Position numbers and translations under genes: made by a program. A stretch of DNA of 64,000 nt from the NCBI GenBank assembly GCA_041694815.1, contig JBGFSC010000033.1, forward strand, positions 8,148 through 72,147. Direction: 5' to 3'. Under the pieces are notes generated by a model that was not told the DNA's origin, did not search any database, and saw only the letters and a list, made by a program, of their open reading frames with translations. Numbering within the stretch: position 1 is the first letter of the stretch; each line of letters begins with the position of its first letter. The DNA comes from Elusimicrobiota bacterium (GTDB lineage: Bacteria; Elusimicrobiota; Elusimicrobia; UBA1565; JACRDR01). Positions 3,370 through 64,000 of the stretch are shown here, piece after piece.

Positions 3370-3407
3370 TTGCTTCCCCGGGCTTATTTTGATAATATAA
3401 CGTTTCC

Positions 3408-7329: not shown

Positions 7330-7330
7330 T

Positions 7331-15843: not shown

Positions 15844-15892
15844 CCCGGTTCGCGTTTACATCCCGTACATAATTTAGTACCATTCTTCAGTC

Positions 15893-46752: not shown

Positions 46753-47690
46753 AAGACAAGATCACGCTGCTTATGGAGGAAACCGGCTGCGAGCAGGGGG
46801 AAGCCGAGCTGGCGCTGGAGCTTTGCGGCTATGAGCTGGAAAAGGCCGTGGCCGCCGTGCCGCGCCTTTTTCAAAATATTATAGTTTTGAAGGGGAAATT
46901 TAAGGAAGAGGTGGAGGGACTATACGGCCTTCTCCTCATAATCTTGAATCTGCGCGAACACTCCCTACTGCGCGCCAAATCGGTTGTTTCGTACAACCCG
47001 GCCATCTACGCCGCCTCCCTGGAGCAGAACTGGTTCGAGTTCGAGAAACATCTCTATGCCTCGCGGCTTTGGGAGGGGACCCTGCAGCCCTTGAGCCAGG
47101 AGATCGAGCAGCTCATGACCGGGTATTTCAGCTCTGAGGAATCGGCGCCCTTTTACTCTGATAGCCGGGGCCTGCCGGTGCAGCAGGAGACGCTGGCATT
47201 GAGATCCTTGTTGGGCAGGCGCTTCGCCGCCGAAGGCTTCCGCTTGTTGCTCCAACGCGACGTGCTGGACATGGGCCAGTTCCAGGAGATACGCCCTTAC
47301 GCCGGAAACGGGCGCCGCCCGGGGACGCGGCGCAGAGGCCCGTCCCGTGGGGGGCCGCTGATTTTGCGCATCACGCTCGAGGGTTCGCCCGATGGAGTGG
47401 AGGCGGCCGACCTGCGGGCGGGGGACATGGTCTACGCCCAGATCACCGACACGCGGGATATCGCCCAGTACCTTTCTAAGCTATTCGGGCCCGGCGCCTC
47501 GGAGGACACGAGCTCACTGCTCGTGCCGGTAGAGGCGGTCGAAAGCGGCCCTAGCCAGGAGATCGGCATCCGCGTCCGTTTCTCGCTGGGCGTTTGCGGA
47601 GACGTGAACGTGGCTCCGGAGACGAGGCTCAAGGTGATTCGCCGTTCGTCGAGATCGAAGGAGTCTTGGTGGAAGAAGTTCTTTGGGTAA
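46749..47690 (+). CDS. hypothetical protein with UBA-like N-terminus
   Basis: TLLMEETGCEQGEAELALELCGYELEKAV. No further family assignment. Confidence 0.35.
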   Translation: MKDKITLLMEETGCEQGEAELALELCGYELEKAVAAVPRLFQNIIVLKGKFKEEVEGLYGLLLIILNLREHSLLRAKSVVSYNPAIYAASLEQNWFEFEKHLYASRLWEGTLQPLSQEIEQLMTGYFSSEESAPFYSDSRGLPVQQETLALRSLLGRRFAAEGFRLLLQRDVLDMGQFQEIRPYAGNGRRPGTRRRGPSRGGPLILRITLEGSPDGVEAADLRAGDMVYAQITDTRDIAQYLSKLFGPGASEDTSSLLVPVEAVESGPSQEIGIRVRFSLGVCGDVNVAPETRLKVIRRSSRSKESWWKKFFG

Positions 47691-49076: not shown

Positions 49077-49107
49077 AGCCTTAAATCCGTGTCAAGGGCC
49101 TAGGTCT

Positions 49108-49136
49108 TGACAGGCCAAGGGCATCTGCTATACTTC
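49108..49136 (+). promoter_or_regulatory. sigma70-like promoter (cttgaca - 16 nt - tatact)
   Basis: Near-consensus -35 at 49108-49114 and -10 at 49131-49136, directly upstream of the structured RNA. Confidence 0.5.
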
Positions 49137-49144
49137 GACTGTTG

Positions 49145-49238
49145 TACCGATAAACCGGCAAACCCTCCGCGAGGAGGGGGCGCAAAGCGTAGGGCCTGGA
49201 GGTCCAGGTCGCCTGGCTACCGAAGACAACAGTAGGTT
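49145..49238 (+). promoter_or_regulatory. candidate c-di-GMP-I (GEMM) riboswitch aptamer
   Basis: ggCAAACC-cuccGCGAggagg-GGCGCAAAGC-...-uggCUACCGaag matches the GEMM signature: GNRA-capped hairpin, CGCAAAGC junction, second hairpin, UACCG. Enclosing stem acuguugu/acaacagu. Confidence 0.5.
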
Positions 49239-49270
49239 CCGGGGTCGCGCAGCTGGAGTTCCCGTTTCCG

Positions 49271-49335
49271 CCCGGCCTTGACTGGCTATCTTCGGGATAG
49301 AGGGGTGAGATAGTCAGCGAGGCCGGGCCTTTTAT
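49271..49335 (+). terminator. intrinsic terminator / riboswitch expression platform
   Basis: Imperfect long hairpin cccggccttgactggctatc...gatagtcagcgaggccggg followed by cctttt. Confidence 0.45.
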
Positions 49336-49864
49336 GGGCAACGGGAGGCGCTTGAAAGGGAATATCGAGGCGGCTTGGGCGTACTGCGGATGGACCGCGT
49401 GGCTCGCGGTCTGGGGGTATTGCCTCCCCGCCCCCGCGTACGCCGAGCCGGCTCCGGTGGGGTTAGAGGCCCAAGGAGTCGATCCTTGGGCCGCTTTGCA
49501 TAGTCGCGACCTGGACGTGCGTGACGCCTTCAATCGCCCGGTATCCAGGCGCCTCATCGAGGGCCAAATCAAGGCGGCATCCTCCGGGGCCCGGGATTCG
49601 GTCTCATTTTTCTCCAGGCTTCCCAAGGCGCGCTCGGTGCTGGTCTCCTTGGAACGGATGCTGATAGCCAGCTGCGGCCTGGCGGCGCCCTCGCCATGGT
49701 CCGGTTTACGTATCGCCGTCACTTCCTGGCTGTGCCGCCCGTCGCCCAAGATCTCGGTGTTCTGGGCCTTCCTGAGTGTCGCCTCGGCTGCCGCTGCGTC
49801 GATTTCGCTGGTCGTCATGCAACCCCGCAAAATCGCCTCCCCCGCGCCGGTCCTGCGCTGTTAA
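49334..49864 (+). CDS. hypothetical ORF immediately downstream of the riboswitch terminator
   Basis: Only sizeable + strand ORF between the riboswitch and the HEAT gene. High GC3 fits coding. Hydrophobic N-terminal segment. No family recognised. Confidence 0.25.
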   Translation: MGNGRRLKGNIEAAWAYCGWTAWLAVWGYCLPAPAYAEPAPVGLEAQGVDPWAALHSRDLDVRDAFNRPVSRRLIEGQIKAASSGARDSVSFFSRLPKARSVLVSLERMLIASCGLAAPSPWSGLRIAVTSWLCRPSPKISVFWAFLSVASAAAASISLVVMQPRKIASPAPVLRC

Positions 49865-49963: not shown

Positions 49964-50737
49964 ATGCCGTTTTACGCGCGCGCGCGCTTCTATAGCGTCC
50001 TGATGTGGATCGCCGGGCCGGCGCTTGGGGGTGATGTGCTCCAGAAAGAACTCGGCCGCATGTCCGACCGAAACCCCGCCGTTCGACGGCAGGCGGCCGC
50101 TCGGCTGGCTCATGCCGAAGGGCGCTCGGCTGCGGCGGCGCTCGAGTCCGCCCTGAAGGATTCCGACGCTTCCGTCCGCCGCGAGGCCGCGCTGGCCCTG
50201 GGCCTGCGCGGGTCTCTGGGGTCCGCCCAAGTCCTGATCTCCTGCCTCAAGGACCGGGACGCGCAGGTCCGCCAGGGCTGCATCCGGGCGCTGGGACTGA
50301 TCCGGGCACCCCAGGGGGTCGCACCGCTGTCTTCGGAGCTTAAGCGCGGGGACGCGCATGAGAAGGCGGCGGTCTTGGAAAGCCTGGGCCATATAGGCGG
50401 CCCCGAGGCTTTCGGCGCCGTCCGCGATGCCTTGAGCGCCTTGCGCGGGAACCGTCGCCGTGGAGCGCCTATCGATCAGCCCCTGATGCAGGAGGAAGAG
50501 GCGATCCGGGCCTTAGGCAGGCTGGGCCGACCCGAGGGAATCCCCTTGGCGAAAGAGGGACTGAGCTCTCCGGACGATCGCATCCGCGCGGTTTCCTGCT
50601 TGGCACTGGCTCGGATGGGCGACGGCTCCGAGCGCCTGCGCTGCGCGGCCCTTCTGTCTCATCCGGACCCGTTGGTCCTCAAGGATGCGGCCGAGGCCTT
50701 GAGCCGGATGGAAGCAAGGGAGAAGGCGCGGGAATAA
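49964..50737 (+). CDS. HEAT/PBS-lyase-like repeat protein
   Basis: Repeated D(S/A)xVRxxAxxALGxxG units (NPAVRRQAAARLAHAEG, DASVRREAALALGLRGS, DAQVRQGCIRALGLI, DDRIRAVSCLALARMGD). Stop lies 1 nt before the giant ORF start. Confidence 0.55.
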   Translation: MPFYARARFYSVLMWIAGPALGGDVLQKELGRMSDRNPAVRRQAAARLAHAEGRSAAAALESALKDSDASVRREAALALGLRGSLGSAQVLISCLKDRDAQVRQGCIRALGLIRAPQGVAPLSSELKRGDAHEKAAVLESLGHIGGPEAFGAVRDALSALRGNRRRGAPIDQPLMQEEEAIRALGRLGRPEGIPLAKEGLSSPDDRIRAVSCLALARMGDGSERLRCAALLSHPDPLVLKDAAEALSRMEAREKARE

Positions 50738-50738
50738 T

Positions 50739-53700
50739 ATGGCACGCCCTATCGCCCTGCTGGCCGGCCTTCTTCTGGCGCCAAGCTTTTGTTGGGCGGT
50801 CCCTCAGGATATCTCCGGCGGCATCTCCACCGCCGAACCGGGCTCGAGGAAGGTATTCTATCACGAATCCTATGATCGGACATGGGTGTTCTACCAGAAC
50901 AGCTTAAGCAAGTTCGCCTACCAGTCCTACGACGGGGTCAACTGGACGGCAGACACCCAGGTTTTTCCGGCGGCGGATGTTTCCGCGGCCGGCTGCACCG
51001 GAACCCCGGGCCCCGTGGGTAGCATCTGGTATGTCGCTTCCTCCACCCGCGTTTATGCCATTGCTGGGGAGGATTCCGCGAACGAAACCAACGACAATAC
51101 CAACGCCAACTATCCCAACAAGGTCTATTTGCGCCGCGGAGACTTAAATTCGGATGGGACGATCACCTGGGGCAGCGTGGCTTGCCGGGCCCGAGACATC
51201 ACCTTTGACGGCGGATTGGGGGATTATCTGGCGGGGATGTCCGTGTCCATCGCGGTTCCCGAGGATGAAACCGCAAACGGCGGCAACAACCTCATGTGGG
51301 TGGCTCATTTTAGGCGCAGGACCACCGTTTTCCGCCAGGCCCCAGCCGGACAGAACCAAATCACGGCGGCGACTCTGGGCGGCGGAGTGGATTTGCAAGA
51401 CGGCCACGCCCTTCAAGAAGCCAGCAACGCCAATGGCTTTGAGAGCGTGGTGCCTATCAACGATGCCGGGACCTGGAAATTCTTGGTAGGCAATAATGAT
51501 CGTTCCGATCAATCGGATCCGATCGTAGACCGTTTTGTAGTCAGCGCCGCGGCCCGGGAGCTTGGCGGAGAACTCGACCCTACCGGTCCCGGGATCAACA
51601 ACAACGCCTACTCCGTCTCCTTGGCTCCCGAGGGGGCCTCCTCCATTGTCCATGCGGCCTATGTCGACAGCAGCGGCCGTATCGCGTATCAAAGGCGCAC
51701 AGGCGCGGGGACCTGGGCCGCGGCGATCGTGGTGGATGCTTGCGCGGCGGTCAATAGCTCTCCGTGCAAAAATCCGTCCGTGGCTTATGTGCCAGACCCC
51801 GCGACCTTTAATAGGGTGTATATCGTATATCTTTCCAGCTACGGCGCCGTCAATTATGCCGTAGGCCCGGCCACCGCCACGGCAGCCGGAGAATTCACCG
51901 TCATCCAAGGCTGGCAGTCGAGCGGATCGAATCCGATCGTTCCGGTTAAAAGCACGGCCCCGGCGCCGCTGGCGGTCGTTTGGAACGACGCCTCCCCACA
52001 AGCCAAGATCGACTTTATCATCACCTCCGGATACGCGTCCCCGACTGTCAGCTCGGTGGCCGAAAGCCCCGGCAAGGCCTGGTTAAGCTCCAACAAATTC
52101 GATCTGTTGATAACGGGGTCCAACTTCCTGGATCTGGGAGGCACGAAGAAGCCAAAGGTCAAGCTGTTGGAGAATGGAGCGGATCAATCCGCTATCACGG
52201 TCACTTCCACCACCTTCGTCAATGCCAGCACTCTTCGGGCTTCCATCGTCCTGATCGCGCCGACGACCTCCTATGACGTGAGGGTTATCAATCCCGACGC
52301 GAAGTTTACCGTGTTTCAGGACACGGTGACCATTTCGTCTCCCACCCTGAGCTCTCTGACGGATGCAGACGGGAACATTCTTTCCGGAGGTATTTTCCCC
52401 AACAATAACGGTACGACCGCCATGACGCGGGATGTGACGGTCAACGGTTCTAACTTTCAGAACTGGGGCTCCAGCGTTCCCAAGGTCTCCGTCGTTTCAG
52501 GGATTTCCTTATATGCCATTACGGGCCTTAGCAGCAACTCGTTTGTCGCAAGACTCAAGATTTCAACGACGACGGTTGCCGGCACCTATGCCCTCACGGT
52601 TCAGAATCCGGACAATCAATCCGTGACCCAGTCCTCCACCTTTACGGTGACCCGGCCCTCGGCCACTATCAACTATCCCATCGAAGGCAACGGCCTGCTG
52701 GGCGGATTTACCACGGGCTTTGCCACCCTCAACGGGGTGGCAGACTATGATACCACGGGGGACGGCCTGGGGGATTCGGTCGCCGGGATCACTCAAAATA
52801 CATCGGATATACGCATCGTCTCCCTTGGAGGCGCCGGTTGTCCTGCAAACGGCTATCTCTGGAACGGAAGCGGATTCGCCGCGCCCGGGAGCTTCGCGGA
52901 TCAGGAGCAGGAGTGGCAGGCGGCCAGCGCCCCGAGCCCGTGGGCGTACTCCACCCTCAATATGAATCTATTCCAAGCGGTCGATACCGAAGGGTGTCCC
53001 TTCCGGCTGGAATCCCGGGGAAGGAGCTCCGATGGGGGGCGAAGCATGGCTTCCGGAGCCGGAATCGTCACCCTGACCATGGACCGCAAAAGGCCGGTGA
53101 TCGATGTCACCTCTCCACCGGGCGGCCAGATCATCAATACGGCCGATAATATTTTCATGGTTTTCAGCGATGTCTCCGGAGTCAAGAAAGTGGAATTCAC
53201 GCTCCAGGCGGATACCGAAACGGCCCGTTACTGGACCGGATCCTCCTGGACGGCGAACGAGATGTGGCTTTCCACCCCGGCCAGTCCCCAGATGCAGTTC
53301 AACCCTCCCACCGCCAGCAACAATGTCACCATCAGGACGATAACGGACGATCTCAAGCGCCCGGCCTGGGTGGATGGATGGAAATATCGGATCAAGGCCA
53401 GGGCCACCGACCGGTTGGAGCAATTGGGTTATGCTCCCGGCGGGGCGTCTGCCCCCACCGAAACGGTGTTCTTCTACGACGTTTCGGCTCCTACGGTGAC
53501 CTTGGAGTCTCAATGGCTGAACGTCTCCACATGCACCGTGGCCTCCGGTTGCGCTACCAGCTGGAAAAGGTCCGTCCCGTCGATCGGCGGCGGCATTTCC
53601 GACAATGTTTCGATCCTGGAGGCGATCCACAACCCCAACGTCAAATTAAGGATTTTCGACATCACCGCCACCAACCTTTACCTGGACACCGGCACCTTGA

Positions 53701-56700
53701 GCTTCACCAACATCGCGGCGGGCAACGCCTGGTTCGACGCCAAGAAAAGCGGAGGCCATGCCAATTGCAGCGTCAACGGCAGCGCCGGAACCTGGAATTG
53801 CAGCTTCAGCGCGGTGCCTGTCGGCGGCTCCTGCGGGGCGCAGGGAGGGCCCGGCTGCGGCTGGCAGAATGGCCGAGAATACCGCATCGAGGTCTACGGG
53901 TTAGACGGGGCCGGCAACTCGACCGGCACGGCGGCCAGCCCGCTGTTTACACGCTATTTCAAATTCGACGCGGACAATCCCACGATCACGATCGACTATC
54001 CGATCGAGGGCGGTCTCTACGGGCTCAACGGGACCAACGACCCGCGCGGAAGCTCGGGCGATTCCACCAGCGGCGTCGACTATGTCGAATACCGACTGGA
54101 GTATCCGGGCTCGGGCGGCCTCACCAAATGGACCAAGGGCGTGACCGGATCCTGTTCGGGCGGAGCCAAGGGCCCCAACGACTGGTGCGACCAGACCGCC
54201 GCGATCTGGAACATCGCCGGCACGACCACGACAGTCCCTTATGCCGTCTGGCACGCCTCCGAGGCCACCAACGCCGGCAAATGGGTCAACGGCGAGCAAT
54301 ACGCACTGATCGCGCGCGTCGTCGACAAGGCCGGCAATTTCTCGGTGACTTACGCCACCGTCACCTTCAAGCTCGACTCCTCCTCGCCCGTCGCCTCGGT
54401 GAGCTTTCCGGGCGCCTCCACCTTCTTTAGCGCCCAAATCGGAGGCGTCAATGGGTTCGTCCAGGATTATCCGTTGACCACGCGGCAAAGCGGAATCGAT
54501 CTCATGAAAATCGGCATCCAGCGCTTGGGCGACGGCTTCTGGTGGAATGGGGCCTCCGGCTGGCAGGCGACCCGCAATGACCCGGCCCAAGCAGTGGTTC
54601 AGGGCAGCCCCGGGGAAAACACGGCTTGGAGCCACGCGAACTTCGGAGGGTTCTGGAGCAATATCACCTGGAGCAGCGAGACCTTCCGCGTCTATGCCTG
54701 GGCGCAGGACAAGGTGGATCAGCCGAGCTCCGCCTACCGCAATGTGGAGTCGTCCCAGACCTTGGATCAGACCTTCTATTATGACGTCATGTCCCCGACT
54801 TCCTCGGTCATCGCCCCGATCAACAATCAATGGTACAGCGCCGTCTCCGGCTACGACCTCTCTTATATATTGGGCACCGCCACGGATCGTCCGGCCTCGG
54901 GGCCGGGCTCGGGAAACACCATCTTCCGGGCCTACGCGGAGATCCGCTATCCTGACGACGGCGATGCCAACAAATGTTGGGGCGGCACGGCTTTCGACAA
55001 GCAATGCTATCAGGACGGAGGCGCCACCTGCGGCTCGGCCGCCTCCAGCTGGCAAGAAATGACGATCTCGGGCAGCTCCTGGACCTTTCCGGTCCAAGCC
55101 GGAGGAGGGGCTTTATGGACCGCCATGACGGACGGCAAGACCTATCAGGTCCGGGTCTGCTCGCTCGACAACGCCGCCGACAGCACGGGCGCATCGAATT
55201 TCAGCAGCCGGAACAAAGAAACGAACTTCACGAGCAACGTCAACGAGAAAAGCCTGCGCGTCGACAAGTCCGGCCCGAGCTCGCTGATCCAATCCCCGAA
55301 CCAGGCGGAGGTCTCGATCCTGACGACGATCAGCGGGACCGCCAGCGACGGCAATAGCGGGATATTCCATGTCCGGGTGGCGTATTACGGCGAGACGGAA
55401 GCCAATTGGTGGAACCCCGTCACCCGGGCCTTCGACCTGGGGGGCGCCTCCTCCAATCCGCCGGATTCCGCTTTCATCGCCGCCTCCACGCAGACGTTAA
55501 ACCCTGTTCCTTGGGAGGTCAGCGGAGCTTCCATTCCCGCCATGGTCAACGGCCAATTCTACCGCATCTTCGCCGCGGGCCAGGACCAGGTCTCGAATAC
55601 GACCACCTTCCCCGGACATGGGAGCTACACGAATCCGCCGACCCAATCTTCCTTTATAAGGATCAAGCGCGTCGCCGCCGCCCCGACCTCGGCCATCAAT
55701 GTTCCCGGAGCCGGAGAGCCCCATTACAAGCCCAGCGGCGGACAGTCGCTGACCTCGATCTCCGGCTCGCTCGCCGACGCCACCACCCTGCAGATCCGCC
55801 TGACGAACGTGAGCGCCGAACCGGATCAGGTATGGACTGGGGCCTCCTGGGTGTCCACCGTCACGTATCTGGCCGGCTGCACGAACACGACCTATGTCGT
55901 CGGGCAGTCCACCTGCGGTTTCATCGGCGCCGACAATACGACATGGTCGGAAAGCGTCAGCGCACTGCCTTGGCCCGCGGGAACCAACCGCATCCAATGC
56001 GAGGCGCGGGCGGCCACGGAAAGCCCGCTGGTCGTGCAGAACGAGCCCTTCCCCTCGCGGCTCTTCGTTATCGACGGCGATAATCCCAACAATACCCTGA
56101 CCGAACCTAACGCGGCCTATGAGAGATGGCTCTCGACGATCACCGGCATCGCTACGGACATCGGCTTGGGCGTCATCTCGAACGTGGAAATCGCCCTCTC
56201 GACCGCCAGCCAGTCCAGTTATTGGAACGGCTCCGGCTCCTGGGTGGTAGGGCCGGCGATATGGCTGGGCGCGACGGCAAATTCTCCGCCCTTCGATTCC
56301 AATAACGAAGCCTGGTCGCGTTCCTCGGGCCTGCCGGCGTTCGAGAACAACAAGACCTACGAGATCCAGGTCCGCCTGACGGAGAAATCAGGACGGACAT
56401 TCCTGTTCCCGCAACCAGGGCCGACCTTCAATTTCACGATCGATACGGCCTCCCCGACCGCGCGCATCCTCGCCCCGGTCGTCAACTCGGGCATCCGCAG
56501 CCTGCCGCAATTATGGGGCACCGCGGCCGATAACGGCCAGAACCAGAGCGTGCAGATCGCGATCCAGAAGCTTTCGGCGACCCCGCTCTGGTACGACGGC
56601 GCGGACTTCCTGGTGCCCGGTTCCAATCCCAACTGGATCTTCATCCAAAACGGTATCAACGGCTTTTTGTCCGCGGACGCGACGAGCTGGACCTACGCCC

Positions 56701-59700
56701 CGGCGGGTGTCGACGGGGATTTCACCGGGGGTTTCGAATATCTGGTGCTGACGCGCTCGACGGATGTGGCCGGCAATATCCAGGATACCTTCGCCGCGGA
56801 CGTTTCCTCGCGCGTGATCCGCATCGACAAGAGGGCGCCGGAGTCCTACGGATCGTTTCCGGTCGACGATGGCGACGGCGCCAGCGGGCGTTATCGTTCA
56901 TCGCTGGTCGGGCAGACGGGGAATTCGACCCATATTCGAGGTACGGCCCAGGACCCGGCCGAGGGGAGCACCCCGTCCGCCGGCGTATTCGCGACACAGC
57001 TCCGTCTCTCGTATTTGAGCGGAGGGACCTCGTACTATTGGACCGGGACCACGTTCAGCTCCTGGACGGTGACGCAGAATTCCGCCTGGAACAGCGCCCT
57101 GGTGACCGGCAGCGCCCCCACTTGGAATTGGGATTACCTCGTCAATATCGACTTCAACGAGGTCGACGGGGCCGCGCAGCCCGCCGTCGACCGCGAGTAC
57201 CGGCTCGAGATGCGCTCCGAGGACGCCTCCCGACTGGCCGACGGAAGCGGGGCCGGCAATGTCGAAACGCCATCCAATCCGCCGGCCGACACCCTCCATT
57301 TCATCGTCGACGATTCGACCCCGGCCGTGCTTATCACCACGCCTTCGGCCGCGGCGCTGGGCTCCTTGAGCGAGATCTCAGGCACGGCCGCCGCCGCCCT
57401 TTCGGGCCATCGAAGGACGGAACTCAAGATTTCGACGGGCACCGGGGCTAGCACCCGCTACTGGACCGGTTCTACGTGGACCGCCAACGAGCATTGGATC
57501 ACGACCGCGAGGCTTGGCCAGAGCTCCTGGACCTACACCGTGCCGGCCAACCTATTCGACGGCGATCTTCCGCTGACCGAATACACGTTCATCGCGCGTA
57601 CTCTCGATTACGCGGGCAACTATTCCTCGCTGTACTCGACCAAGACCCTGGTCCATGACGACGTCGCTCCCTATGCGGCCGTCGGATTTCCCATCTCGGG
57701 AGGCTTCTACAACGCCGCCGGGATCGTGACGAGCTCTGGCAGCGTCTCGGACAGCGCCGCCGGGAATACGGGAATCACCGATGTTCGGATCGTTTTAAAA
57801 CGCGTCGACCCGCCGGTCGGATATTGGAAACAATCGGATAATACCTTTCCGCCCGGCATCCAGCGATCGACGGTCAATATTTTCACTAGCTCGTGGACCG
57901 TCGCGATGCCTGCGCTATTTAGCAACGTCAGCTACCGTATGTGGGTGGAGGCCACCGACGGCGCGGGGAACATCTACTGGGCCAACGCGAACGCCTCGCA
58001 GGCCGCGGCCGACACGGACATCGGCAATAATGTCGGGGGGGTGCCCTTCCTCTACGATAACGATGTCCCGCTATCGGTCACGACCTCTCCCGCCAACAAC
58101 GCCTTAATCCGCTCGCAGCTCTCGGCAATCGCCGGAACGAGCATCGACGGCCTGGGCTCCTCGGGACTGTCGACCTCCGCCGGAGACCAGTTCCGCTTCC
58201 GCCTGCTGCGCAGCTCCGGCCCCCCGGGAAATTACCAATATTGGCAGGGAGGGGCTTCTTGGGGCAGCGTGGCCGATTTCTTCATCACCCCCGTTGAGAT
58301 TGACGCCGCGAACAAGAAATTTTCGTGGATCCAGGCACTTCCCGCCGGGGCCTTCCTGGATGACGGGCGCGAATATAAAACCCGGATCCGCGCCCGGGAC
58401 CAGGCCAACAATACGGAATCGGAGAAGGAATACCGCTTCATCTTCGACAGCTCCGTACCGGACAGCAAGATTACCTCCCCCGCGCACGATTCCTTTATCA
58501 ATGCCACCGCCTTCACGATCTCCGGCACGGCCGATGATCGCATCAATTACGGCCAGGGGCAGGATTTCGAGGCCGGTTTGGCCGTCAACGGGGCCTCCGT
58601 GGCCGTGCAGCGATTGAGCGACAATCAATGGTGGAGCGGTACCGCTTTCAATCAAAGCTCCCCTTTCTGGAGTTCCGCTACCTTTGTCGGCGCTTCCTCG
58701 GGGACCTTCAGCTACGCGATCACCCTCACGGCCGATACCAGCTATTACGTGGTCGCCAGGGCATTGGACCTGGCGGGCAATCTCGAAACGGATCTAAGCA
58801 CCAACACCTTCACCGTCGACCTCCAGAACCCCACCTCCCGGTCGACCTCTCCGACCGGGACGCTCAACCAAATGACGGCCATCTACGGCACGGCGAGCGA
58901 CCTGCTGCCGGGCCAGCTCGACGGGATTCTCCTTAACATCGTCCAGACGGCCGGGACTGGCTCGCCTCAGACCTGGACGGACACGGGCTGGACGGCGGGG
59001 GACTCGAGCATCTGGGTGGGCACCGGCACGATCGGCGCGCTCATCACCGGAACCACCTACGCCTGGAGCTTCTCCGGCAGCACGATCGCCTGGCTCGCCG
59101 ATTCCAGCTATAAGGTAAGCACCCGCGCCCGGGACAAGGCCGGCAATTACCGCCCGATTCCCGGCAGTCCGGATATCACCTTCTCGCTCGCCGGGCCCTT
59201 ATCCGGCATCACCACTCCGAGCAACGGCGCCCCGCATTTCAAGTCGGCGGCCCTGACCTCGATACTGGGCACGGCGATCAATTCCTCGACCGCCGCCGTG
59301 CGCCTGACCCAGGCCGGCCCGGACCATGCCTTCGCGGTGGGCAACGACGATCTGGCCTGGCATAGCGGCTTGGGCTGGGTGTCGACCAACACCTTCAACG
59401 GCTACATCGGCGTGACCAGCTACAACGGCGCCCCCGACCCGGACACCTGGAGCTATTCCTTCTTGGCCGCCAACTGGCAGAACAATCGCAAGTACAAGGC
59501 CGAGTCCATAGGCCGCACCCTATCGCCCGCCGTGGACCAGAGCGTGTTCACGGGAGCGGAGACCCGCGAGTTCATCATCGACGATTCCGCGCCTTCGGCG
59601 GCCGTCACCCTGCCCAGCGCGCTCTATTACCGAGCCGGGCAATTGCCGAATTTCACCGGCACGATCACGGATACGGTCCCCGGAGCGGCCAATTCGGCCA

Positions 59701-62700
59701 GCGTGCGCTTTAGGCTCTTGCGCATGAAGGATAGCTACGAGTGGAACGGTTCGACCTTCGCGGCCTCCGGCATCGACCTCGTCCCGACCGATCAGGGCGG
59801 GGGCAATTACAGCTTCGCCAACTCCACCGGCGACGCGGTGTTCGAGGACGGCCTTCTCTACAAGGTGCGCATCACCGCCCAGGACCTGGCGACGAACCAG
59901 ACGGTGGTCGAGCAGCCCTCTCCCAACGGGTTCCGCTTCGACGTGTCCAAGCCCACGGCGACGATCAGCGTCCCCAAGGCAGGGTATGTCATCAATAGCC
60001 TGCCGCAGCTCAGCGGCACGGCGGCCGATTTCATGTCCGGTTCGGGCAATTATCAGGGCTCCGGGGTGTCCGGCGTGAATGTCTACCTGCAGAACCTGGC
60101 CAACGGCAGCTATTTCAACGGCTCGGGCTTTTTGAGCGCGACGCCGGTGCCCTTGGCGGCCTCCTTCTACGCGCCGAGCGGCACCTGGACCTATACCTCG
60201 GGATCGCTGGAGTCCTCGCTGACCGACGGGCTCTACAGCCTCTACGTCGAGGCCGCCGATAACGCGGGCAATGTCCAGGTGAATTTCACCGCCAACAACT
60301 CCTCGAGGACCTTCGCCATCGACAAGACGGCGCCGAGTAGGGCCATCACGACTCCCGTGTCCCAGGCCTATACCCCCGCGGCGATATTTTCCGCCAATGT
60401 CACGGGCACGAACACCGATTCCGTGGTCAACAGCACGGCGGCCGGGGCGGATTTCGTCGAATTGCAATTGTGGTATGTCGTCGGGGTCAGCAGCTATTAC
60501 TGGAGCGGCTCCTGGAGCACGACGATCAGCACGCTGCAGGCCTCCGGCGCCTCCTGGAGCCTTCTGGCCCAGCAGCCGCCTCAGACCGGAGCCAACAGTT
60601 GGGCCCGCGGCGCCGACGCGGTGGATACCGAGCGGCGCTATTACGTTCGAGTGCGGGCGCATGACAAATCCACCCTCGGAGACGGTTCGGTGAGTCCTTC
60701 TACGGGTAATGTAAGCAGCTGGAGCTCGCCGCTGGGATTCATCGTCGACCCGATCCTGCCTGTCTCCTCGGTGACGACGCCTTCCAACGGCAGCTTCGCC
60801 AGCGCCCTGCCCTCGATCTCGGGCACGGCCGACGGGGGGCTTTCGGGTCTCGGTTCCCCCGGCGGGGTGGTGGTCCGCATCACGACCAACCCGAGCACCG
60901 GCCCGGACTGGAACGGAAGCGCGTATTCGTTCACGGGGGTGCCGATATTCCGTTCCGTGACGGTCACGGGCAACAGCTGGTCGTATCCGGGATCTACGGG
61001 AGACAATTTGACGGGGGCCTTCCAGGACCATAACGTCTACTACGTCTATTCGAAGGCCACCGACGGCGCCGGAAATCCCGAGTCAGGCATGTTCGTTTCC
61101 ACCGTCACCATCGACGCCTCGGCGCCGAGCTTGTCGATCAGCCATCCGAGCACTCCGCCGAACCCGCCCTTCTATTCGAACAACACCGAATCGACGCGCA
61201 AGAGCACCTATACCTGGGGCGCAATTTCGGACCCCGCTCCCGTGCCTTCCGGCGTCACGCAGGTCTGGGTGGCGATTGCCTCCGGCTCCTCGCTCAATGT
61301 TTGGTGGAGCACGACGACCAACAGCTTCAGCGTCAATCAAACCGCCGTCCACTGGTCGACGCAGGTATACGTGCCCGGCGCCGCGCGCTGGGAATATTAT
61401 CCGCCCTGGACGCTTTCGGACCAGATCAGCTACAAGGTCTTCGTCCGGGCCAGCGATGGGGCAGGCAACTGGACGGGCAACATCGTCAATCCCGGCGATG
61501 CCGGAGAGCTCTCGCAGCAGTTCAAGTACGACATACTCCGCCCCACGGGCACGGTGAGCGGTCCGGCCAACGGGAGCAACGTCAAATCCTTGGCCGCCTT
61601 CTCGGGCAGCGCGGCCGACCCCGGCGGCAGCGCGGGCTCGGGCATCCAGATCGTCTATGCCGGCGTGAAGAAGACCTCGGTGATCCCGAACGAATGGTGG
61701 AACTGGGGCACGAAGCAATTCGATTCCGGGCTCAGCGATCCTCCGGCCCTCTCCCCTTTAAGCGCGGCCTGGACCCAGGTGGCGACCACCAGCGCCCAAG
61801 GCTTCAATTCCGTCGGCTGGTCGACGCCGGTGCCGGTGAATATGCTGGTGAGCTCCAACACCTACCAGGTGGTGGTGGCGGCCGTGGACTGGGCGACGAA
61901 TCGCCCGCCGGACGCTGAGCCGACGCTCTCGGGAGCCGGCGCGAATTTCCGCTACGACACCCAGGCCCCGGTGGTGGCGGCCACCTTTCCGGTCAGCGGG
62001 CTGGCCTATAACGCGGCGAGCCTGACTCCTCTCGCCGGCACGGCGGCGGACAACACGACGGGCAATTCCGGAGTGCAGAGCGTCCAGATCTTGCTTAAGA
62101 ACAGCGTGACCAACTCCTATTGGAGCGGCAGCGGCAATATCTTCGATGCCCCGCCTTCCGGCTATTCCAATTGGGTAACGATGAGCGGCAAGGAAACCTG
62201 GAGCCGCTCCTGGCCGTCGCTCGACAGCAACGTCAAATACATCCTGTGGGTGCGGGGCAGCGATAACGCTGTCAACATCTCGACCTACCCGGCCTACCCG
62301 GCCGATCAGGGCCGGCTCGACGCCAACCAGAACATCGACGGCAGCGTGGCGATCAACTTCATCTACGACACCGACCCGCCGGTGTCCAAGATGACCTCGC
62401 CCCAGCCGGGGGCCTATATCCAGAACCCGGCCGTTTTGGCGACCGTCTCCGGCACGGCCTATTCAGACGTCGCCAACGTTTCGGGAGCCTCCTATGTCGA
62501 CCAGGTGCGGCTCAATCTGTATTGCTCGGGCTGCGCGGCGGGCGATGTGCCGGGCTGGTGGACGGGAGGCGGTTGGAGCACGACGCAGCCCGATCCGCCG
62601 CAATTCGCCGCCTCCGGACCGCCTGGCAGCCCCTCGGTCAACTGGAGCTTTAGCTTCTCGAACAGTTGGGCTGAGGGCTACCAGTACATCGTCTACTCCC

Positions 62701-64000
62701 GCGCCCGGGATTTCGCCACGAACCTGGAGTCGCCCCAGGCCCAGGGCGGCTTCATCGTGGACCTGAGCACTCCTTCGGCGAGCCTCGTCTCTCCCGCCAA
62801 TAATGTCTTCTACGTGAGCGTCAGCTCGGTCACGGGGTCGGCCGACGACCGCTTCTGCACCTTCAACCCGGCTTTGTGCGTCGTCAACAACCGCGACAAG
62901 CAGGCCGGCATCGCCGGCTCCAGCGTCACCGTGGTGATCCAGCGCCTGAGCGACTACAAATACTGGAGCGGTACCGCCTTCGACTCCACCGTGCCCGTCT
63001 GGTCCTCGGCCAATTTCGTCGGGATGTCCAGCGGAACCTGGAGCTACTCGATCAACCCGAGCTTCCTGGTCGACGGATCGAGCTTCGCGGTGACGGCGCG
63101 GGCCAAGGACCAGGCGGGCAATCTGCAGCTTTCCTATAGCACGAATGTCTTCACCATCGACTCGCAAGCCCCGACTTCGATGGCTACGGCGCCGGCTACG
63201 ACGGTCGATGTGATGACTCCCATCTACGGCACGGCCAGCGACCCCGCCATCGGAGTGCTCGATGGCGTGCTGCTCAACATCGTGCAAACGGTGGGCAACG
63301 GCTCGCCTCAGACCTGGACGGACACGGGCTGGGTCGCCGGGAACTCGAGCATCTGGGTGGGCACCGGCACGATCGGCGCGCTCATCACCGGAACCACCTA
63401 CGCCTGGAGCTTCTCCGGCAGCACGATTACCTGGCTGTCGAACTCCACCTATCAGATCAAGACCCGCGCCCGGGACAAGGCCGGAAATTACCGTCCCGTT
63501 CCCGGCAGCGCGGACCTGAGCTTCTCCATCTCCGGCCCGCTTTCGGGCATCACCACTCCGAGCAACGGCGCCCCGCATTTCAAGTCGGCGGCCCTGACCT
63601 CGATACTGGGCACGGCGATCAATTCCTCGACCGCCGCCGTGCGCCTGACCCAGGCCGGCCCGGACCATGCCTTCGCGGTGGGCAACGACGATCTGGCCTG
63701 GCATAGCGGCTTGGGCTGGGTGTCGACCAACACCTTCAACGGCTACATCGGCGTGACCAGCTACAACGGCGCCCCCGACCCGGACACCTGGAGCTATTCC
63801 TTCTTGGCCGCCAACTGGCAGAACAATCGCAAGTACAAGGCCGAGTCCATAGGCCGCACCCTATCGCCCGCCGTGGACCAGAGCGTGTTCACGGGAGCGG
63901 AGACCCGCGAGTTCATCATCGACGATTCCGCGCCTTCGGCGGCCGTCACCCTGCCCAGCGCGCTCTATTACCGAGCCGGGCAATTGCCGAATTTCACCGG
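50739..64000 (+). CDS. giant secreted Ig-like-repeat surface protein (adhesin-like), partial; at least 4,420 codons with no stop before the window end
   Basis: SP MARPIALLAGLLLAPSFCWA. Continuous reading frame from 50739 to 64000, which the ORF track misses because there is no in-window stop. Dozens of roughly 100-aa repeats carry YW(S/T)G(S/T)xW and (A/T)xDxAGN strand motifs typical of bacterial Ig-like domains. All overlapping track ORFs are in other frames. Confidence 0.8.
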   Translation, partial: MARPIALLAGLLLAPSFCWAVPQDISGGISTAEPGSRKVFYHESYDRTWVFYQNSLSKFAYQSYDGVNWTADTQVFPAADVSAAGCTGTPGPVGSIWYVASSTRVYAIAGEDSANETNDNTNANYPNKVYLRRGDLNSDGTITWGSVACRARDITFDGGLGDYLAGMSVSIAVPEDETANGGNNLMWVAHFRRRTTVFRQAPAGQNQITAATLGGGVDLQDGHALQEASNANGFESVVPINDAGTWKFLVGNNDRSDQSDPIVDRFVVSAAARELGGELDPTGPGINNNAYSVSLAPEGASSIVHAAYVDSSGRIAYQRRTGAGTWAAAIVVDACAAVNSSPCKNPSVAYVPDPATFNRVYIVYLSSYGAVNYAVGPATATAAGEFTVIQGWQSSGSNPIVPVKSTAPAPLAVVWNDASPQAKIDFIITSGYASPTVSSVAESPGKAWLSSNKFDLLITGSNFLDLGGTKKPKVKLLENGADQSAITVTSTTFVNASTLRASIVLIAPTTSYDVRVINPDAKFTVFQDTVTISSPTLSSLTDADGNILSGGIFPNNNGTTAMTRDVTVNGSNFQNWGSSVPKVSVVSGISLYAITGLSSNSFVARLKISTTTVAGTYALTVQNPDNQSVTQSSTFTVTRPSATINYPIEGNGLLGGFTTGFATLNGVADYDTTGDGLGDSVAGITQNTSDIRIVSLGGAGCPANGYLWNGSGFAAPGSFADQEQEWQAASAPSPWAYSTLNMNLFQAVDTEGCPFRLESRGRSSDGGRSMASGAGIVTLTMDRKRPVIDVTSPPGGQIINTADNIFMVFSDVSGVKKVEFTLQADTETARYWTGSSWTANEMWLSTPASPQMQFNPPTASNNVTIRTITDDLKRPAWVDGWKYRIKARATDRLEQLGYAPGGASAPTETVFFYDVSAPTVTLESQWLNVSTCTVASGCATSWKRSVPSIGGGISDNVSILEAIHNPNVKLRIFDITATNLYLDTGTLSFTNIAAGNAWFDAKKSGGHANCSVNGSAGTWNCSFSAVPVGGSCGAQGGPGCGWQNGREYRIEVYGLDGAGNSTGTAASPLFTRYFKFDADNPTITIDYPIEGGLYGLNGTNDPRGSSGDSTSGVDYVEYRLEYPGSGGLTKWTKGVTGSCSGGAKGPNDWCDQTAAIWNIAGTTTTVPYAVWHASEATNAGKWVNGEQYALIARVVDKAGNFSVTYATVTFKLDSSSPVASVSFPGASTFFSAQIGGVNGFVQDYPLTTRQSGIDLMKIGIQRLGDGFWWNGASGWQATRNDPAQAVVQGSPGENTAWSHANFGGFWSNITWSSETFRVYAWAQDKVDQPSSAYRNVESSQTLDQTFYYDVMSPTSSVIAPINNQWYSAVSGYDLSYILGTATDRPASGPGSGNTIFRAYAEIRYPDDGDANKCWGGTAFDKQCYQDGGATCGSAASSWQEMTISGSSWTFPVQAGGGALWTAMTDGKTYQVRVCSLDNAADSTGASNFSSRNKETNFTSNVNEKSLRVDKSGPSSLIQSPNQAEVSILTTISGTASDGNSGIFHVRVAYYGETEANWWNPVTRAFDLGGASSNPPDSAFIAASTQTLNPVPWEVSGASIPAMVNGQFYRIFAAGQDQVSNTTTFPGHGSYTNPPTQSSFIRIKRVAAAPTSAINVPGAGEPHYKPSGGQSLTSISGSLADATTLQIRLTNVSAEPDQVWTGASWVSTVTYLAGCTNTTYVVGQSTCGFIGADNTTWSESVSALPWPAGTNRIQCEARAATESPLVVQNEPFPSRLFVIDGDNPNNTLTEPNAAYERWLSTITGIATDIGLGVISNVEIALSTASQSSYWNGSGSWVVGPAIWLGATANSPPFDSNNEAWSRSSGLPAFENNKTYEIQVRLTEKSGRTFLFPQPGPTFNFTIDTASPTARILAPVVNSGIRSLPQLWGTAADNGQNQSVQIAIQKLSATPLWYDGADFLVPGSNPNWIFIQNGINGFLSADATSWTYAPAGVDGDFTGGFEYLVLTRSTDVAGNIQDTFAADVSSRVIRIDKRAPESYGSFPVDDGDGASGRYRSSLVGQTGNSTHIRGTAQDPAEGSTPSAGVFATQLRLSYLSGGTSYYWTGTTFSSWTVTQNSAWNSALVTGSAPTWNWDYLVNIDFNEVDGAAQPAVDREYRLEMRSEDASRLADGSGAGNVETPSNPPADTLHFIVDDSTPAVLITTPSAAALGSLSEISGTAAAALSGHRRTELKISTGTGASTRYWTGSTWTANEHWITTARLGQSSWTYTVPANLFDGDLPLTEYTFIARTLDYAGNYSSLYSTKTLVHDDVAPYAAVGFPISGGFYNAAGIVTSSGSVSDSAAGNTGITDVRIVLKRVDPPVGYWKQSDNTFPPGIQRSTVNIFTSSWTVAMPALFSNVSYRMWVEATDGAGNIYWANANASQAAADTDIGNNVGGVPFLYDNDVPLSVTTSPANNALIRSQLSAIAGTSIDGLGSSGLSTSAGDQFRFRLLRSSGPPGNYQYWQGGASWGSVADFFITPVEIDAANKKFSWIQALPAGAFLDDGREYKTRIRARDQANNTESEKEYRFIFDSSVPDSKITSPAHDSFINATAFTISGTADDRINYGQGQDFEAGLAVNGASVAVQRLSDNQWWSGTAFNQSSPFWSSATFVGASSGTFSYAITLTADTSYYVVARALDLAGNLETDLSTNTFTVDLQNPTSRSTSPTGTLNQMTAIYGTASDLLPGQLDGILLNIVQTAGTGSPQTWTDTGWTAGDSSIWVGTGTIGALITGTTYAWSFSGSTIAWLADSSYKVSTRARDKAGNYRPIPGSPDITFSLAGPLSGITTPSNGAPHFKSAALTSILGTAINSSTAAVRLTQAGPDHAFAVGNDDLAWHSGLGWVSTNTFNGYIGVTSYNGAPDPDTWSYSFLAANWQNNRKYKAESIGRTLSPAVDQSVFTGAETREFIIDDSAPSAAVTLPSALYYRAGQLPNFTGTITDTVPGAANSASVRFRLLRMKDSYEWNGSTFAASGIDLVPTDQGGGNYSFANSTGDAVFEDGLLYKVRITAQDLATNQTVVEQPSPNGFRFDVSKPTATISVPKAGYVINSLPQLSGTAADFMSGSGNYQGSGVSGVNVYLQNLANGSYFNGSGFLSATPVPLAASFYAPSGTWTYTSGSLESSLTDGLYSLYVEAADNAGNVQVNFTANNSSRTFAIDKTAPSRAITTPVSQAYTPAAIFSANVTGTNTDSVVNSTAAGADFVELQLWYVVGVSSYYWSGSWSTTISTLQASGASWSLLAQQPPQTGANSWARGADAVDTERRYYVRVRAHDKSTLGDGSVSPSTGNVSSWSSPLGFIVDPILPVSSVTTPSNGSFASALPSISGTADGGLSGLGSPGGVVVRITTNPSTGPDWNGSAYSFTGVPIFRSVTVTGNSWSYPGSTGDNLTGAFQDHNVYYVYSKATDGAGNPESGMFVSTVTIDASAPSLSISHPSTPPNPPFYSNNTESTRKSTYTWGAISDPAPVPSGVTQVWVAIASGSSLNVWWSTTTNSFSVNQTAVHWSTQVYVPGAARWEYYPPWTLSDQISYKVFVRASDGAGNWTGNIVNPGDAGELSQQFKYDILRPTGTVSGPANGSNVKSLAAFSGSAADPGGSAGSGIQIVYAGVKKTSVIPNEWWNWGTKQFDSGLSDPPALSPLSAAWTQVATTSAQGFNSVGWSTPVPVNMLVSSNTYQVVVAAVDWATNRPPDAEPTLSGAGANFRYDTQAPVVAATFPVSGLAYNAASLTPLAGTAADNTTGNSGVQSVQILLKNSVTNSYWSGSGNIFDAPPSGYSNWVTMSGKETWSRSWPSLDSNVKYILWVRGSDNAVNISTYPAYPADQGRLDANQNIDGSVAINFIYDTDPPVSKMTSPQPGAYIQNPAVLATVSGTAYSDVANVSGASYVDQVRLNLYCSGCAAGDVPGWWTGGGWSTTQPDPPQFAASGPPGSPSVNWSFSFSNSWAEGYQYIVYSRARDFATNLESPQAQGGFIVDLSTPSASLVSPANNVFYVSVSSVTGSADDRFCTFNPALCVVNNRDKQAGIAGSSVTVVIQRLSDYKYWSGTAFDSTVPVWSSANFVGMSSGTWSYSINPSFLVDGSSFAVTARAKDQAGNLQLSYSTNVFTIDSQAPTSMATAPATTVDVMTPIYGTASDPAIGVLDGVLLNIVQTVGNGSPQTWTDTGWVAGNSSIWVGTGTIGALITGTTYAWSFSGSTITWLSNSTYQIKTRARDKAGNYRPVPGSADLSFSISGPLSGITTPSNGAPHFKSAALTSILGTAINSSTAAVRLTQAGPDHAFAVGNDDLAWHSGLGWVSTNTFNGYIGVTSYNGAPDPDTWSYSFLAANWQNNRKYKAESIGRTLSPAVDQSVFTGAETREFIIDDSAPSAAVTLPSALYYRAGQLPNFT
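59205..59659 (+). repeat. intragenic exact repeat, copy 1 (inside the giant ORF)
   Basis: Identical at nucleotide level to 63547-64000. The preceding roughly 260 bp (58947-59204 against 63291-63546) are about 90% identical. Confidence 0.75.
63547..64000 (+). repeat. intragenic exact repeat, copy 2 (truncated by window end)
   Basis: Copy of 59205-59659, offset 4,341 bp, which is not a multiple of 3 by my count. The offset may be off by 1-2 nt. Confidence 0.75.

Follow-up and report, generated by a model that had tools for sequence, protein, structure and literature searches.

A giant Ig-like repeat protein, probably a surface fiber, as the last visible cistron of a predicted riboswitch-led operon in Elusimicrobiota

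The stretch of Elusimicrobiota DNA analyzed here (the window; 64,000 nucleotides) ends within a giant gene that is preceded by two smaller genes and a structured leader. The arrangement is best explained as a single operon that runs in the order promoter, c-di-GMP-I-type aptamer, terminator-like hairpin, small envelope protein, secreted HEAT protein, and giant protein. Its features, given by position in the window, are as follows.

49107–49134, forward strand: sigma-70-type promoter-like site (TTGACA, 16-nt spacer, TATACT, extended -10 TG; 11 of 12 consensus positions)
49147–49224, forward strand: c-di-GMP-I-type riboswitch aptamer, with P1 extending to 49138–49144 / 49226–49232
49270–49333, forward strand: expression platform predicted by folding, a long G+C-rich hairpin (49270–49328) plus UUUU (49330–49333) that abuts the start codon
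49334–49864, forward strand: predicted small conserved envelope protein, 176 aa, motif LDVRDAFNRPVS
49964–50737, forward strand: HEAT-repeat protein, predicted to be secreted, 257 aa, Pfam HEAT_2
50739–64000, forward strand: 5' portion of the giant gene, no fewer than 4,420 codons, its stop codon lying past the window edge
50739–50798, forward strand: signal peptide of the giant protein (aa 1–20, MARPIALLAGLLLAPSFCWA), from sequence features and hydrophobicity profile
50799–52034, forward strand: N-terminal head (aa 21–432), a rare all-β domain of ~410 aa
52035–52649, forward strand: two IPT/TIG-like domains of ~100 aa (aa 433–637)
52650–63956, forward strand: 28 tandem Ig-like (E-set) modules (aa 638–4406), ~131 aa each
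63213–64000, forward strand: block duplicated within the gene, second copy (first copy 58872–59659; blastn)

The giant gene is real and continuous through the window. As the first-pass annotation had read by eye, the frame that begins at ATG 50739 is open to the window edge; translation gives 0 stops in 4,420 codons, a run with a chance of ~10^-52.6 (~1e-53) given the regional base composition, and the remaining five frames stay open for at most 520 codons. The nearest in-frame stop upstream is TGA 50700–50702, and no ATG, GTG, or TTG lies between it and ATG 50739. The three codon positions have a GC content of 0.52/0.55/0.81. Frame and GC3 stay uniform along the ORF, whose GC3 falls within the range of the window's other genes (0.72–0.91). 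Single-frame proteins from independent MAGs are collinear with the product, P0012 at 41% identity over aa 1899–4420 and P0056 at 27% over aa 2–3362. The gene had been reported as missing from the ORF track, and it is absent only because the track omits ORFs extending past the window edge. The ORFs that are listed antisense to it all lie in a single phase relative to the giant frame and have a GC1 of 0.70–0.86 and a GC3 of ~0.5, and are therefore shadows of the GC3-rich sense frame. They had rightly been called artifacts, but the length of up to 565 aa given for them was wrong: the longest listed is 503 aa, and none of 565 aa was found. The protein itself has at least 4,420 aa and a mass of >460 kDa, is acidic (pI 4.7), and is rich in Ser, Thr, and Asn.

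Control by c-di-GMP had been proposed for this gene without stated grounds, and the operon leader now offers a predicted means of it. The aptamer matches Rfam RF01051 over its full length (model positions 1–87), scoring 56.9 bits (gathering score 35; E 5e-9). Homologous aptamers occur at the matching position in eight other loci, so that a riboswitch heads the operon in nine of the 11 independent loci that contain related giant genes (window included); a sub-threshold search of L014 and L015 found none at E<=1. In a six-sequence alignment drawn from six loci, compensatory changes are seen in 15 of the 28 predicted aptamer pairs. In every locus of the six-locus set the aptamer is flanked by a conserved promoter upstream and by the first cistron downstream, and the same TTGACA-N17-TATACT stands at an equal distance upstream of it in five of the six loci examined. 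The fully syntenic L010 has an identical hairpin sequence and a 6-U run 3' of its aptamer. The type of expression platform differs among loci, with a terminator-type platform in the window and L010 and a start codon 8–11 nt past the aptamer in L001, L006, and L011. Inspected by eye, the leader offers only a weak, unconvincing 7-bp alternative as an anti-terminator pairing. No GGDEF, EAL, or PilZ gene is present among the 29 window proteins scanned.

The core of the window aptamer reads GGC (49179–49181), where the RF01051 consensus has an invariant GAC. The same replacement is found in seven other loci, giving a GGC core in eight of the nine aptamers, with the operon-leader aptamer of L012 as the exception. 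It is possible, if rather unlikely, that these GGC-core aptamers sense a different cyclic dinucleotide or related molecule, in which case the operon would answer a signal other than c-di-GMP and would not be a classical motile/sessile switch. Sensing of c-AMP-GMP has been documented for variants of the c-di-GMP-I RNA (PMC7266159). RF03167 (c-di-GMP-I-GGC) is the best-scoring family for four of the nine aptamers, and those of L001, L006, L010, and L013, which have the same GGGGCGCAAAGC core as the window, exceed its threshold of 59 bits (59.8–70.4 bits). We know of no established ligand for this variant. The L012 aptamer has an A at the position equivalent to G20 of Vc2, and c-AMP-GMP riboswitches reportedly carry an A there. 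The window aptamer itself argues for c-di-GMP, as the nucleotides that we take to be equivalent to Vc2 G20, A47, and C92 are the same G, A, and C that c-di-GMP binders have, and the parent family RF01051 is its best clan member, although the RF03167 score is masked by clan competition.

The two genes between leader and giant gene recur in most related loci, but not in all. The first encodes a small protein with a signal-peptide-like N-terminus, a C-terminal hydrophobic stretch, and VLRC as its last residues, and it has no family match in Pfam or NCBIfam. Its homologs are 24–46% identical in a six-sequence alignment and at most 50% identical in local tblastn matches. Such a homolog is the first gene 3' of the riboswitch in L001, L006, L008, L010, L011, L013, and L016, and one occurs in L014 without a riboswitch. 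The second gene is preceded by a strong GAGGAGG ribosome-binding site, and its product scores 104 bits against PF13646 HEAT_2 (cut-off 27.7), compared to 93 and 118 bits for the homologs in L008 and L010. The N-terminus of the HEAT protein is hydrophobic, and a signal peptide is clear in the L006 homolog. In seven of the 11 loci (window, L001/L003, L006, L008, L010, L014, and L016) the giant gene is preceded by a HEAT_2 gene, which in most of them abuts it; in an eighth, L015, HEAT is fused to a B12/radical-SAM enzyme. In the window the HEAT stop codon (50735–50737) leaves a gap of 1 nt to the giant ATG at 50739, a junction whose coordinates had been given exactly and whose tightness recurs in relatives, and the gap between the small-protein and HEAT genes is 99 nt. 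A scan found no terminator-like site in either intergenic gap; its two weak matches lie within the small-protein gene and occur at shuffle-expected frequency. The visible DNA, which ends within the giant gene, contains no outer-membrane secretion system linked to the locus.

The giant protein begins with MARPIALLAGLLLAPSFCWA, followed by VPQD. This N-terminus is built like a Sec signal peptide, with a basic residue ahead of a hydrophobic core and then C-W-A. No further strongly hydrophobic 19-mer occurs in its 4,420 aa. The signal peptide agrees with the first-pass annotation, which had the modules follow it directly; the first ~637 aa are instead made up of other domains. Of these, the head is tentatively modeled as a six-bladed sialidase-type β-propeller with Asp-box-like motifs. 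The model has a pLDDT of 51 and resembles sialidases at the fold level only, with a sequence identity of 6–12%. Pfam and NCBIfam yield no BNR, sialidase, or GH family match for the head. The Asp-box-like motifs are present, but no arginine triad is apparent in a 5-sequence alignment, because just two arginines are conserved (head-domain numbering): R300, which is invariant, and R17, which is shared by the sequences with a complete N-terminus. A head that acts as a sialidase-like glycoside hydrolase on an Ig-like stalk, degrading host, prey, or matrix glycans, would draw on this likeness of fold, but the same fold is also common among non-catalytic binders, and together with the low confidence of the model and the lack of a family match or triad this makes an enzyme-tipped fiber quite unlikely. 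Word-index homology searches with the head returned 1–3 matches, and its alignment searched against metagenomes returned one weak partial locus (L007) without riboswitch or cassette, which was left out of the counts. Both P0001 and the second ORF found in L001 conserve the IPT-like domains that follow, and aa 558–637 match NCBIfam CoaZ_rpt_PGGG at 32.3 bits (cut-off 30).

The rest of the visible protein is an array of modules with the consensus F..D...P....P....L..I.GTA.D...SGV..V......YW.G..W....W....sWsy....Y.v.vRA.D.AGN. An Ig-like repeat architecture with recurring YW.G, D...P, and D.AGN motifs had been described, and all three motifs are found (D...P at module boundaries); the unit of roughly 100 residues does not stand, as the period is ~131 aa (range 116–163). 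The repeat unit has the features of an Ig-like / E-set β-sandwich fold. The Ig-like assignment also holds in a domain scan, where the whole protein scores 69 bits against Pfam Big_13 (PF19077; Big_3 clan; cut-off 27). When modules are scanned one by one, six of the 28 match Big_13, all under the cut-off (best E 3e-5), so the module is a diverged relative rather than a typical member of Big_13. A word-index homology search with the module gave two matches, an underestimate of the family when set against the 15,182 cluster representatives recovered by an exhaustive profile search, in proteins of up to 7,989 aa.

A protein of this kind could also be a structural component of the envelope or sheath, S-layer-like or a periplasmic scaffold, with no role in attachment. 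It is very acidic and rich in Ser, Thr, and Asn, as are many S-layer proteins, its helpers are predicted to be located in the envelope, and it has a Sec signal peptide, yet no recognizable outer-membrane secretion signal in the visible part. Such a component is nevertheless improbable, since an appendage made under certain conditions would account better than a constitutive wall layer for riboswitch control and for the one distinct head at the terminus, since S-layer proteins, which self-assemble into two-dimensional arrays, are as a rule much smaller, and since the modules most closely resemble those of the fiber adhesins SiiE, Bap, Lap, and MpIBP.

Toward the end of the window the array contains a duplicated block. 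The two copies are offset by 4,341 nt (1,447 aa, or 11 modules) and share 92.8% identity over 793 nt by blastn. Identity rises to 100% in the final 460 nt of the window, which repeat 59200–59659 exactly. Upstream of this identical stretch the copies diverge stepwise, from 92% to <60% at the DNA level, and the module pairs 15/26, 16/27, and 17/28 are 49, 75, and 100% identical, whereas other module pairs in the protein are only 20–35% identical. A repeat-induced misjoin or loop that inflates the ORF, for which the identical end and the contig-truncated state of all close relatives would speak, is very improbable given that the other modules are too divergent for misassembly, that frame and GC3 are uniform throughout, and that the collinear P0012 contains the same duplication; this shared duplication and a graded divergence unexpected from a simple loop led us to reject an assembly loop. 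The duplication and its identical tail would rather point to ongoing intragenic recombination or gene conversion, which may vary the length of the fiber; we propose that such genes break assemblies as a result.

The identified sources of the 11 related loci are almost all Elusimicrobiota. L010 retains the entire gene order of the window (topA-xerC-orphan-purA-...-small ORF-HEAT-giant), with a PurA identity of 68%; such synteny, and not marker genes, was the basis on which the analysis placed the window taxonomically. An exact-protein look-up found no identical HEAT or PurA protein. Among the closest relatives of the giant protein that were looked up, nearly all come from Elusimicrobiota MAGs and are truncated at a contig end, and ten close relatives are all annotated as partial or lack a clean end. 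Their inspected C-terminal tails, which are contig-truncated or frameshifted, contain no sorting or anchoring signal and consist of a second repeat of ~100 aa (LLvLLPGE..PG..GK.G...AG..F.V.V.A.D..WN) without a Pfam match. A scan of genome and metagenome contig collections found no relative of the last unique 404 aa of the giant protein. Elusimicrobia have been reported among the phyla richest in proteins of >5,000 aa (PMC11573180).

Taken together, the giant protein is moderately likely to be a surface fiber or adhesin under second-messenger control, encoded by the last visible cistron of a riboswitch-led operon. An adhesin or S-layer role at the surface had been suggested before, and we likewise infer a surface role from the features described above. 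The protein would be exported via Sec and would form a long, acidic, rod-like fiber of serial β-sandwiches. An Ig-type module usually spans ~4 nm, and from this we estimate a fiber of several hundred nm. Because the head comes right after the signal peptide, the propeller would be the distal binding tip, and the C-terminal part would hold the fiber to the cell. The level of c-di-GMP, or of a close relative, would set transcription or translation of the whole operon through the leader aptamer, and fiber production would thereby be tied to whether the cells are attached or free-living. The two small envelope proteins could be dedicated helpers, for instance a periplasmic chaperone or scaffold and a membrane anchor.

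A bolder version of this surface-fiber hypothesis, which is speculative and unlikely to hold in full, is that Elusimicrobiota share a lineage-wide, hitherto undescribed surface apparatus. It would comprise a small VLRC-ending membrane protein, a secreted HEAT protein, and an Ig-like fiber of 5,000–8,000+ aa with interchangeable heads, gated by a GGC-core c-di-GMP-I variant whose ligand may not be c-di-GMP, and its helpers would give a diderm a new way to export or anchor Sec substrates of megadalton size.

Giant repeat proteins are usually dismissed as "hypothetical adhesins." Here a conserved cyclic-dinucleotide-type riboswitch with a variant core provides a testable regulatory handle, and two uncharacterized envelope partners recur across a poorly studied, mostly uncultured phylum. 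The loci give c-di-GMP-I-GGC variant riboswitches a gene context that could aid ligand identification, and they supply candidates for the export and anchoring of a >460 kDa Sec-dependent protein in a diderm. For metagenomics, the riboswitch, small protein, and HEAT gene form a marker set with which assembly-breaking genes could be found and correctly joined; an ORF track that demands a stop codon misses the largest gene in the window.

Giant repeat proteins are common, but we found no published description of a riboswitch, two helper genes, and a giant gene arranged in this way, and a literature search returned no paper on operons of c-di-GMP riboswitches and giant proteins in Elusimicrobiota. 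The nearest known sequences are Elusimicrobiota MAG proteins annotated as "Ig-like domain repeat" or hypothetical proteins (MBI4425143.1, P0012; MFA5138670.1, P0018; HVA67437.1, P0056; MBI5883380.1, P0011), which share the ~131-aa module and align collinearly in module order over thousands of residues at 27–41% identity; the sequences as a group are only 24–41% identical to it. P0056 has the head in common with the giant protein (HMM), P0018 and P0011 align over the head region at 27–28% identity, and P0012 shares the block duplication. The loci of P0056, P0018, and P0011 have a riboswitch and a small-protein gene upstream, as in the window, and those of P0056 and P0018 a HEAT gene as well. 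All four are partial and none has been studied, and they therefore define a family and not a function. The other likenesses are looser: six-bladed sialidase/BNR (Asp-box) propellers resemble a low-confidence head model that lacks a sequence-family match and a catalytic signature, and the window RNA is a full-length RF01051 match with covarying helices that departs from that family in its core.

Among characterized giant adhesins, the T1SS/RTX proteins (Pseudomonas LapA, Marinomonas MpIBP, and Salmonella SiiE) lack the N-terminal Sec signal that the giant protein has. A domain scan found no RTX repeats in its 4,420 aa, and protein family scans found no T1SS genes in the 50 kb upstream of the giant gene. 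We rejected a T1SS/RTX adhesin on account of its Sec signal and because the visible 4,420 aa hold no RTX repeats. The module, ~131 aa with an insertion of ~35 aa, is also longer than the 90–110 aa units of LapA, MpIBP, SiiE, and Bap-type adhesins, and the distinct head is N-terminal, unlike in T1SS/RTX and Bap-type adhesins. Control differs as well, with a predicted leader riboswitch here and LapD/LapG proteolysis in LapA-type adhesins. In this respect the closest parallel is Clostridioides difficile CD2831, a surface adhesin gene directly controlled by a cyclic-di-GMP aptamer in its 5' leader (PMC6447587, PMC6366702). The window likewise places a cyclic-di-GMP-type aptamer in the 5' leader of an adhesin-like gene, but CD2831 is a sortase-anchored, collagen-binding protein of ordinary size from a Gram-positive bacterium, whereas the window, from a presumed diderm, holds a three-gene operon with a product of >460 kDa. 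The two also differ in aptamer class, which is class II in CD2831 and of the class I type, with its GGC core, in the window.

The giant gene, which the first-pass annotation had read from an ATG at 50739 to the window edge, is continuous: translation of 50739-63998 (+) gives 4,420 codons with 0 stops. At a stop probability of 0.027 per codon, taken from the base composition of the giant-gene region itself, a stop-free run of 4,420 codons has a chance of ~10^-52.6, and six-frame translation finds at most 520 open codons in each of the remaining five frames over the same 13.3 kb. The closest in-frame stop on the 5' side lies at 50700-50702, and no start codon comes between it and ATG 50739. By codon position (1/2/3), GC is 0.52/0.55/0.81; this GC3 matches the 0.72-0.91 of the window's other genes. 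The gene was absent from the ORF track because the ORF lister leaves out ORFs running off the source. The long antisense ORFs all share one phase relative to the giant frame, with GC1 of 0.70-0.86 and GC3 of ~0.5, and are therefore shadows of the sense frame, artefacts as had been proposed.

The product begins like a signal peptide, continues with a distinct head and then carries 28 or more Ig-like modules. In agreement with the earlier prediction, residues 1-20 (MARPIALLAGLLLAPSFCWA) show the n/h/c organisation of a Sec signal peptide, and no second strongly hydrophobic 19-mer occurs elsewhere in the 4,420 aa. The head (aa 21-432) is an all-beta domain, tentatively a propeller, and is followed by two IPT/TIG-like domains (aa 433-637). 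An iterated self-HMM then places 28 tandem modules at aa 638-4406, spaced 116-163 aa apart. Their mean spacing is near 131 aa, and the original estimate of ~100 residues was therefore too short, while the motifs picked out by eye do recur in the module consensus (boundary F..D...P, GTA.D, SGV, YW.G..W and RA.D.AGN). The overall interpretation is supported, with corrections for module size and for the distinct 640-aa N-terminal region. The visible protein has a pI of 4.7 and a mass of 464 kDa.

The sole DNA-level self-similarity in the gene is between 58872-59659 and 63213-64000 (92.8%), where identity climbs from <60% and reaches 100% across the last 460 window nucleotides. The offset of 4,341 nt equals 1,447 aa, or 11 modules, and module pairs at this offset are graded in identity (13/24 36%, 15/26 49%, 16/27 75%, 17/28 100%), with modules otherwise 20-35% identical. 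Because of this gradient, and because the closest relative, P0012, has the same block duplication, the duplication is real and old, with part of it freshly homogenised. It is a plausible reason why such giant genes end contigs.

The protein belongs to a large, uncharacterised family of giant Ig-like repeat proteins. An exhaustive search with the module profile returned 15,182 cluster representatives at E<=1e-3, of which 1,298 reached E<=1e-30, and family members reach 7,989 aa with 40-55 modules. BLASTP alignments collinear with the window protein include P0012 (41% over aa 1899-4420) and P0056 (27% over aa 2-3362), with similarly long alignments to P0018, P0011 and P0013. Eight of the ten top relatives are partial proteins from Elusimicrobiota/Elusimicrobia MAGs annotated as "hypothetical" or "Ig-like domain repeat protein", and one of the ten comes from an archaeal MAG. 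Another relative, P0010 (33% identity over 2,100 aa), runs ~5,000 residues past the position at which the window gene is cut, so that gene may be much longer than its visible 13.3 kb. After their module arrays, P0010 (aa 5789-7550) and the tails of P0016, P0036, P0064 and P0067 carry a second ~100-aa repeat (consensus LLvLLPGE..PG..GK.G...AG..F.V.V.A.D..WN) without a Pfam match, spanning 500 to 1,900 aa or more; to judge by these relatives, such a repeat may also lie beyond the window edge.

The giant gene is part of a conserved operon that also encodes two envelope proteins and is preceded by a cyclic-dinucleotide-type aptamer, likewise conserved. The 257-nt gap after purA holds the promoter, aptamer and hairpin:

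Features of the operon upstream of the giant gene
49107-49134, +, sigma-70-type promoter with extended -10 (11/12 consensus match)
49147-49224, +, full-length c-di-GMP-I riboswitch aptamer (RF01051, 56.9 bits vs 35)
49270-49328, +, long G+C-rich hairpin then UUUU, terminator-like, directly 5' of ATG 49334
49334-49864, +, small protein of 176 aa, first cistron
49964-50737, +, HEAT_2 protein whose N-terminus is hydrophobic, preceded by a strong GAGGAGG site, second cistron

The small protein matches no known family. As claimed earlier, the HEAT gene ends in TAA at 50735-50737 and the giant-gene ATG follows at 50739, with 1 nt between them. The scan for terminator-like sites reported none in the two intergenic gaps of the operon; two weak matches fall inside the small-protein gene (49584-49605), in a scan totalling 5 against 4.9 expected from shuffles.

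This arrangement was compared across 11 independent loci encoding module-bearing giant proteins: the window, L001/L003, L006, L008 (P0056), L010 (P0018), L011 (P0013), L012 (P0015), L013 (P0011), L014 (P0009), L015 (P0007) and L016 (P0023). A c-di-GMP-I-type aptamer occupies the leader, on the coding strand, in 9/11 loci (best model RF01051 in five, the c-di-GMP-I-GGC model RF03167 in four); none turned up in L014 or L015 even at E<=1. In an alignment of six aptamers, compensatory changes affect 15 of the 28 predicted pairs, and the promoter TTGACA-N17-TATACT is kept in 5/6 of these loci. The terminator-like hairpin sequence is common to the window and L010, and in L001, L006 and L011 a start codon 8-11 nt 3' of the aptamer takes its place. 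The small protein is found in nine loci (absent from L012 and L015), with the motif LD[VI]RD.(F/L)NRPVS and a C-terminal hydrophobic stretch, ending LRC in six loci and LLC in L001. In 7/11 loci the giant gene is preceded by a HEAT_2 gene, which in most of them adjoins it directly; L001/L003 have other ORFs and tRNA genes in between. In L015, a locus without riboswitch, the gene directly upstream (760-3000) is a B12-binding/radical-SAM/HEAT_2 fusion, a hint that a modifying enzyme may be recruited by the HEAT partner.

The window and L010 share topA-xerC-orphan-purA synteny (identity: XerC 56%, orphan 54%, PurA 68%). This synteny, together with the best relatives, suggests that the window comes from Elusimicrobiota. 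The orphan (46749-47690, +, 313 aa), between xerC/D and purA, has no Pfam or NCBIfam family; its L010 counterpart (955-1935, 54% identity) holds the same position. In the JA2.bin36-type relatives (L001 7264-12708 and L001 12705-17270), the head-plus-IPT protein P0001 (797 aa) terminates at a stop codon, and the ORF after it opens with a different N-terminus, LamG-like, ahead of IPT domains and modules; the HEAT and head genes are separated there by tRNA genes and a ParE toxin. The L001 locus is therefore rearranged or split.

For the c-di-GMP control suggested by the first-pass annotation, the leader aptamer is real evidence, pointing to regulation by a cyclic dinucleotide. The Rfam scan found no further families elsewhere in the window. 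Eight loci, the window included, have GGC in the aptamer core in place of the consensus GAC; the 2017 paper defining this variant reportedly left its ligand open. The three ligand-contacting positions (G20, A47 and C92 in Vc2 numbering, by our own mapping) are canonical in the window aptamer. L012 has two c-di-GMP-I matches (782-866 and 2075-2180), and its operon-leader aptamer has a canonical GAC core but an A at the G20-equivalent position, the change typical of c-AMP-GMP-sensing variants. A scan of 29 window proteins detected no diguanylate cyclase, phosphodiesterase or PilZ gene.

We propose that the leader would couple production to second-messenger level, and that the giant protein, exported by Sec as its N-terminus predicts, would form a long acidic rod with the N-terminal propeller as distal binding tip. 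The C-terminal part, outside the window, would keep the protein on the cell, and the small membrane protein and periplasmic HEAT protein would serve as dedicated helpers.

Elsewhere in the window, a lipoprotein cluster at 36382-39395 (+) comprises an LPP20-like gene (36382-36834), an orphan of 346 aa (36831-37871), a small ORF and, at 38307-39395, the gene for a CsgG-family outer-membrane channel lipoprotein (109 bits). The stretch upstream of the cluster (31578-36345) encodes a T2SSE-type ATPase, a DnaA-like AAA protein and a GAF-histidine kinase. This CsgG-like cluster could be a secretion channel; it lies 11 kb upstream of the operon, with housekeeping genes in between. An island of lower GC (9234-15892; 0.55-0.60 vs 0.64 for the window) carries two genes for WD40 beta-propellers (11270-12415 and 14106-15098, GC3 0.74); ahead of each stand small signal-peptide ORFs (10578-11285, 12408-13010 and 12980-13597) with a common N-terminal ESG(I/V).FGEG motif. 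A 2.1 kb stretch at 1295-3407 (GC 0.52) holds no ORF with window codon bias and no Rfam match.

Elusimicrobia are reported to belong to the phyla in which proteins longer than 5,000 aa are most abundant (PMC11573180). Our literature search found no report joining Elusimicrobia, c-di-GMP and riboswitch, nor did we find a description of the unit that riboswitch, small protein, HEAT protein and giant gene form together. Its interest would be greater if the helpers proved to be a new route of export or anchoring, or if the ligand of the GGC-core aptamers proved to be new. We rate the unit as one form of riboswitch-controlled adhesin systems; C. difficile CD2831 is the precedent for an adhesin under a c-di-GMP riboswitch (PMC6447587, PMC6366702).
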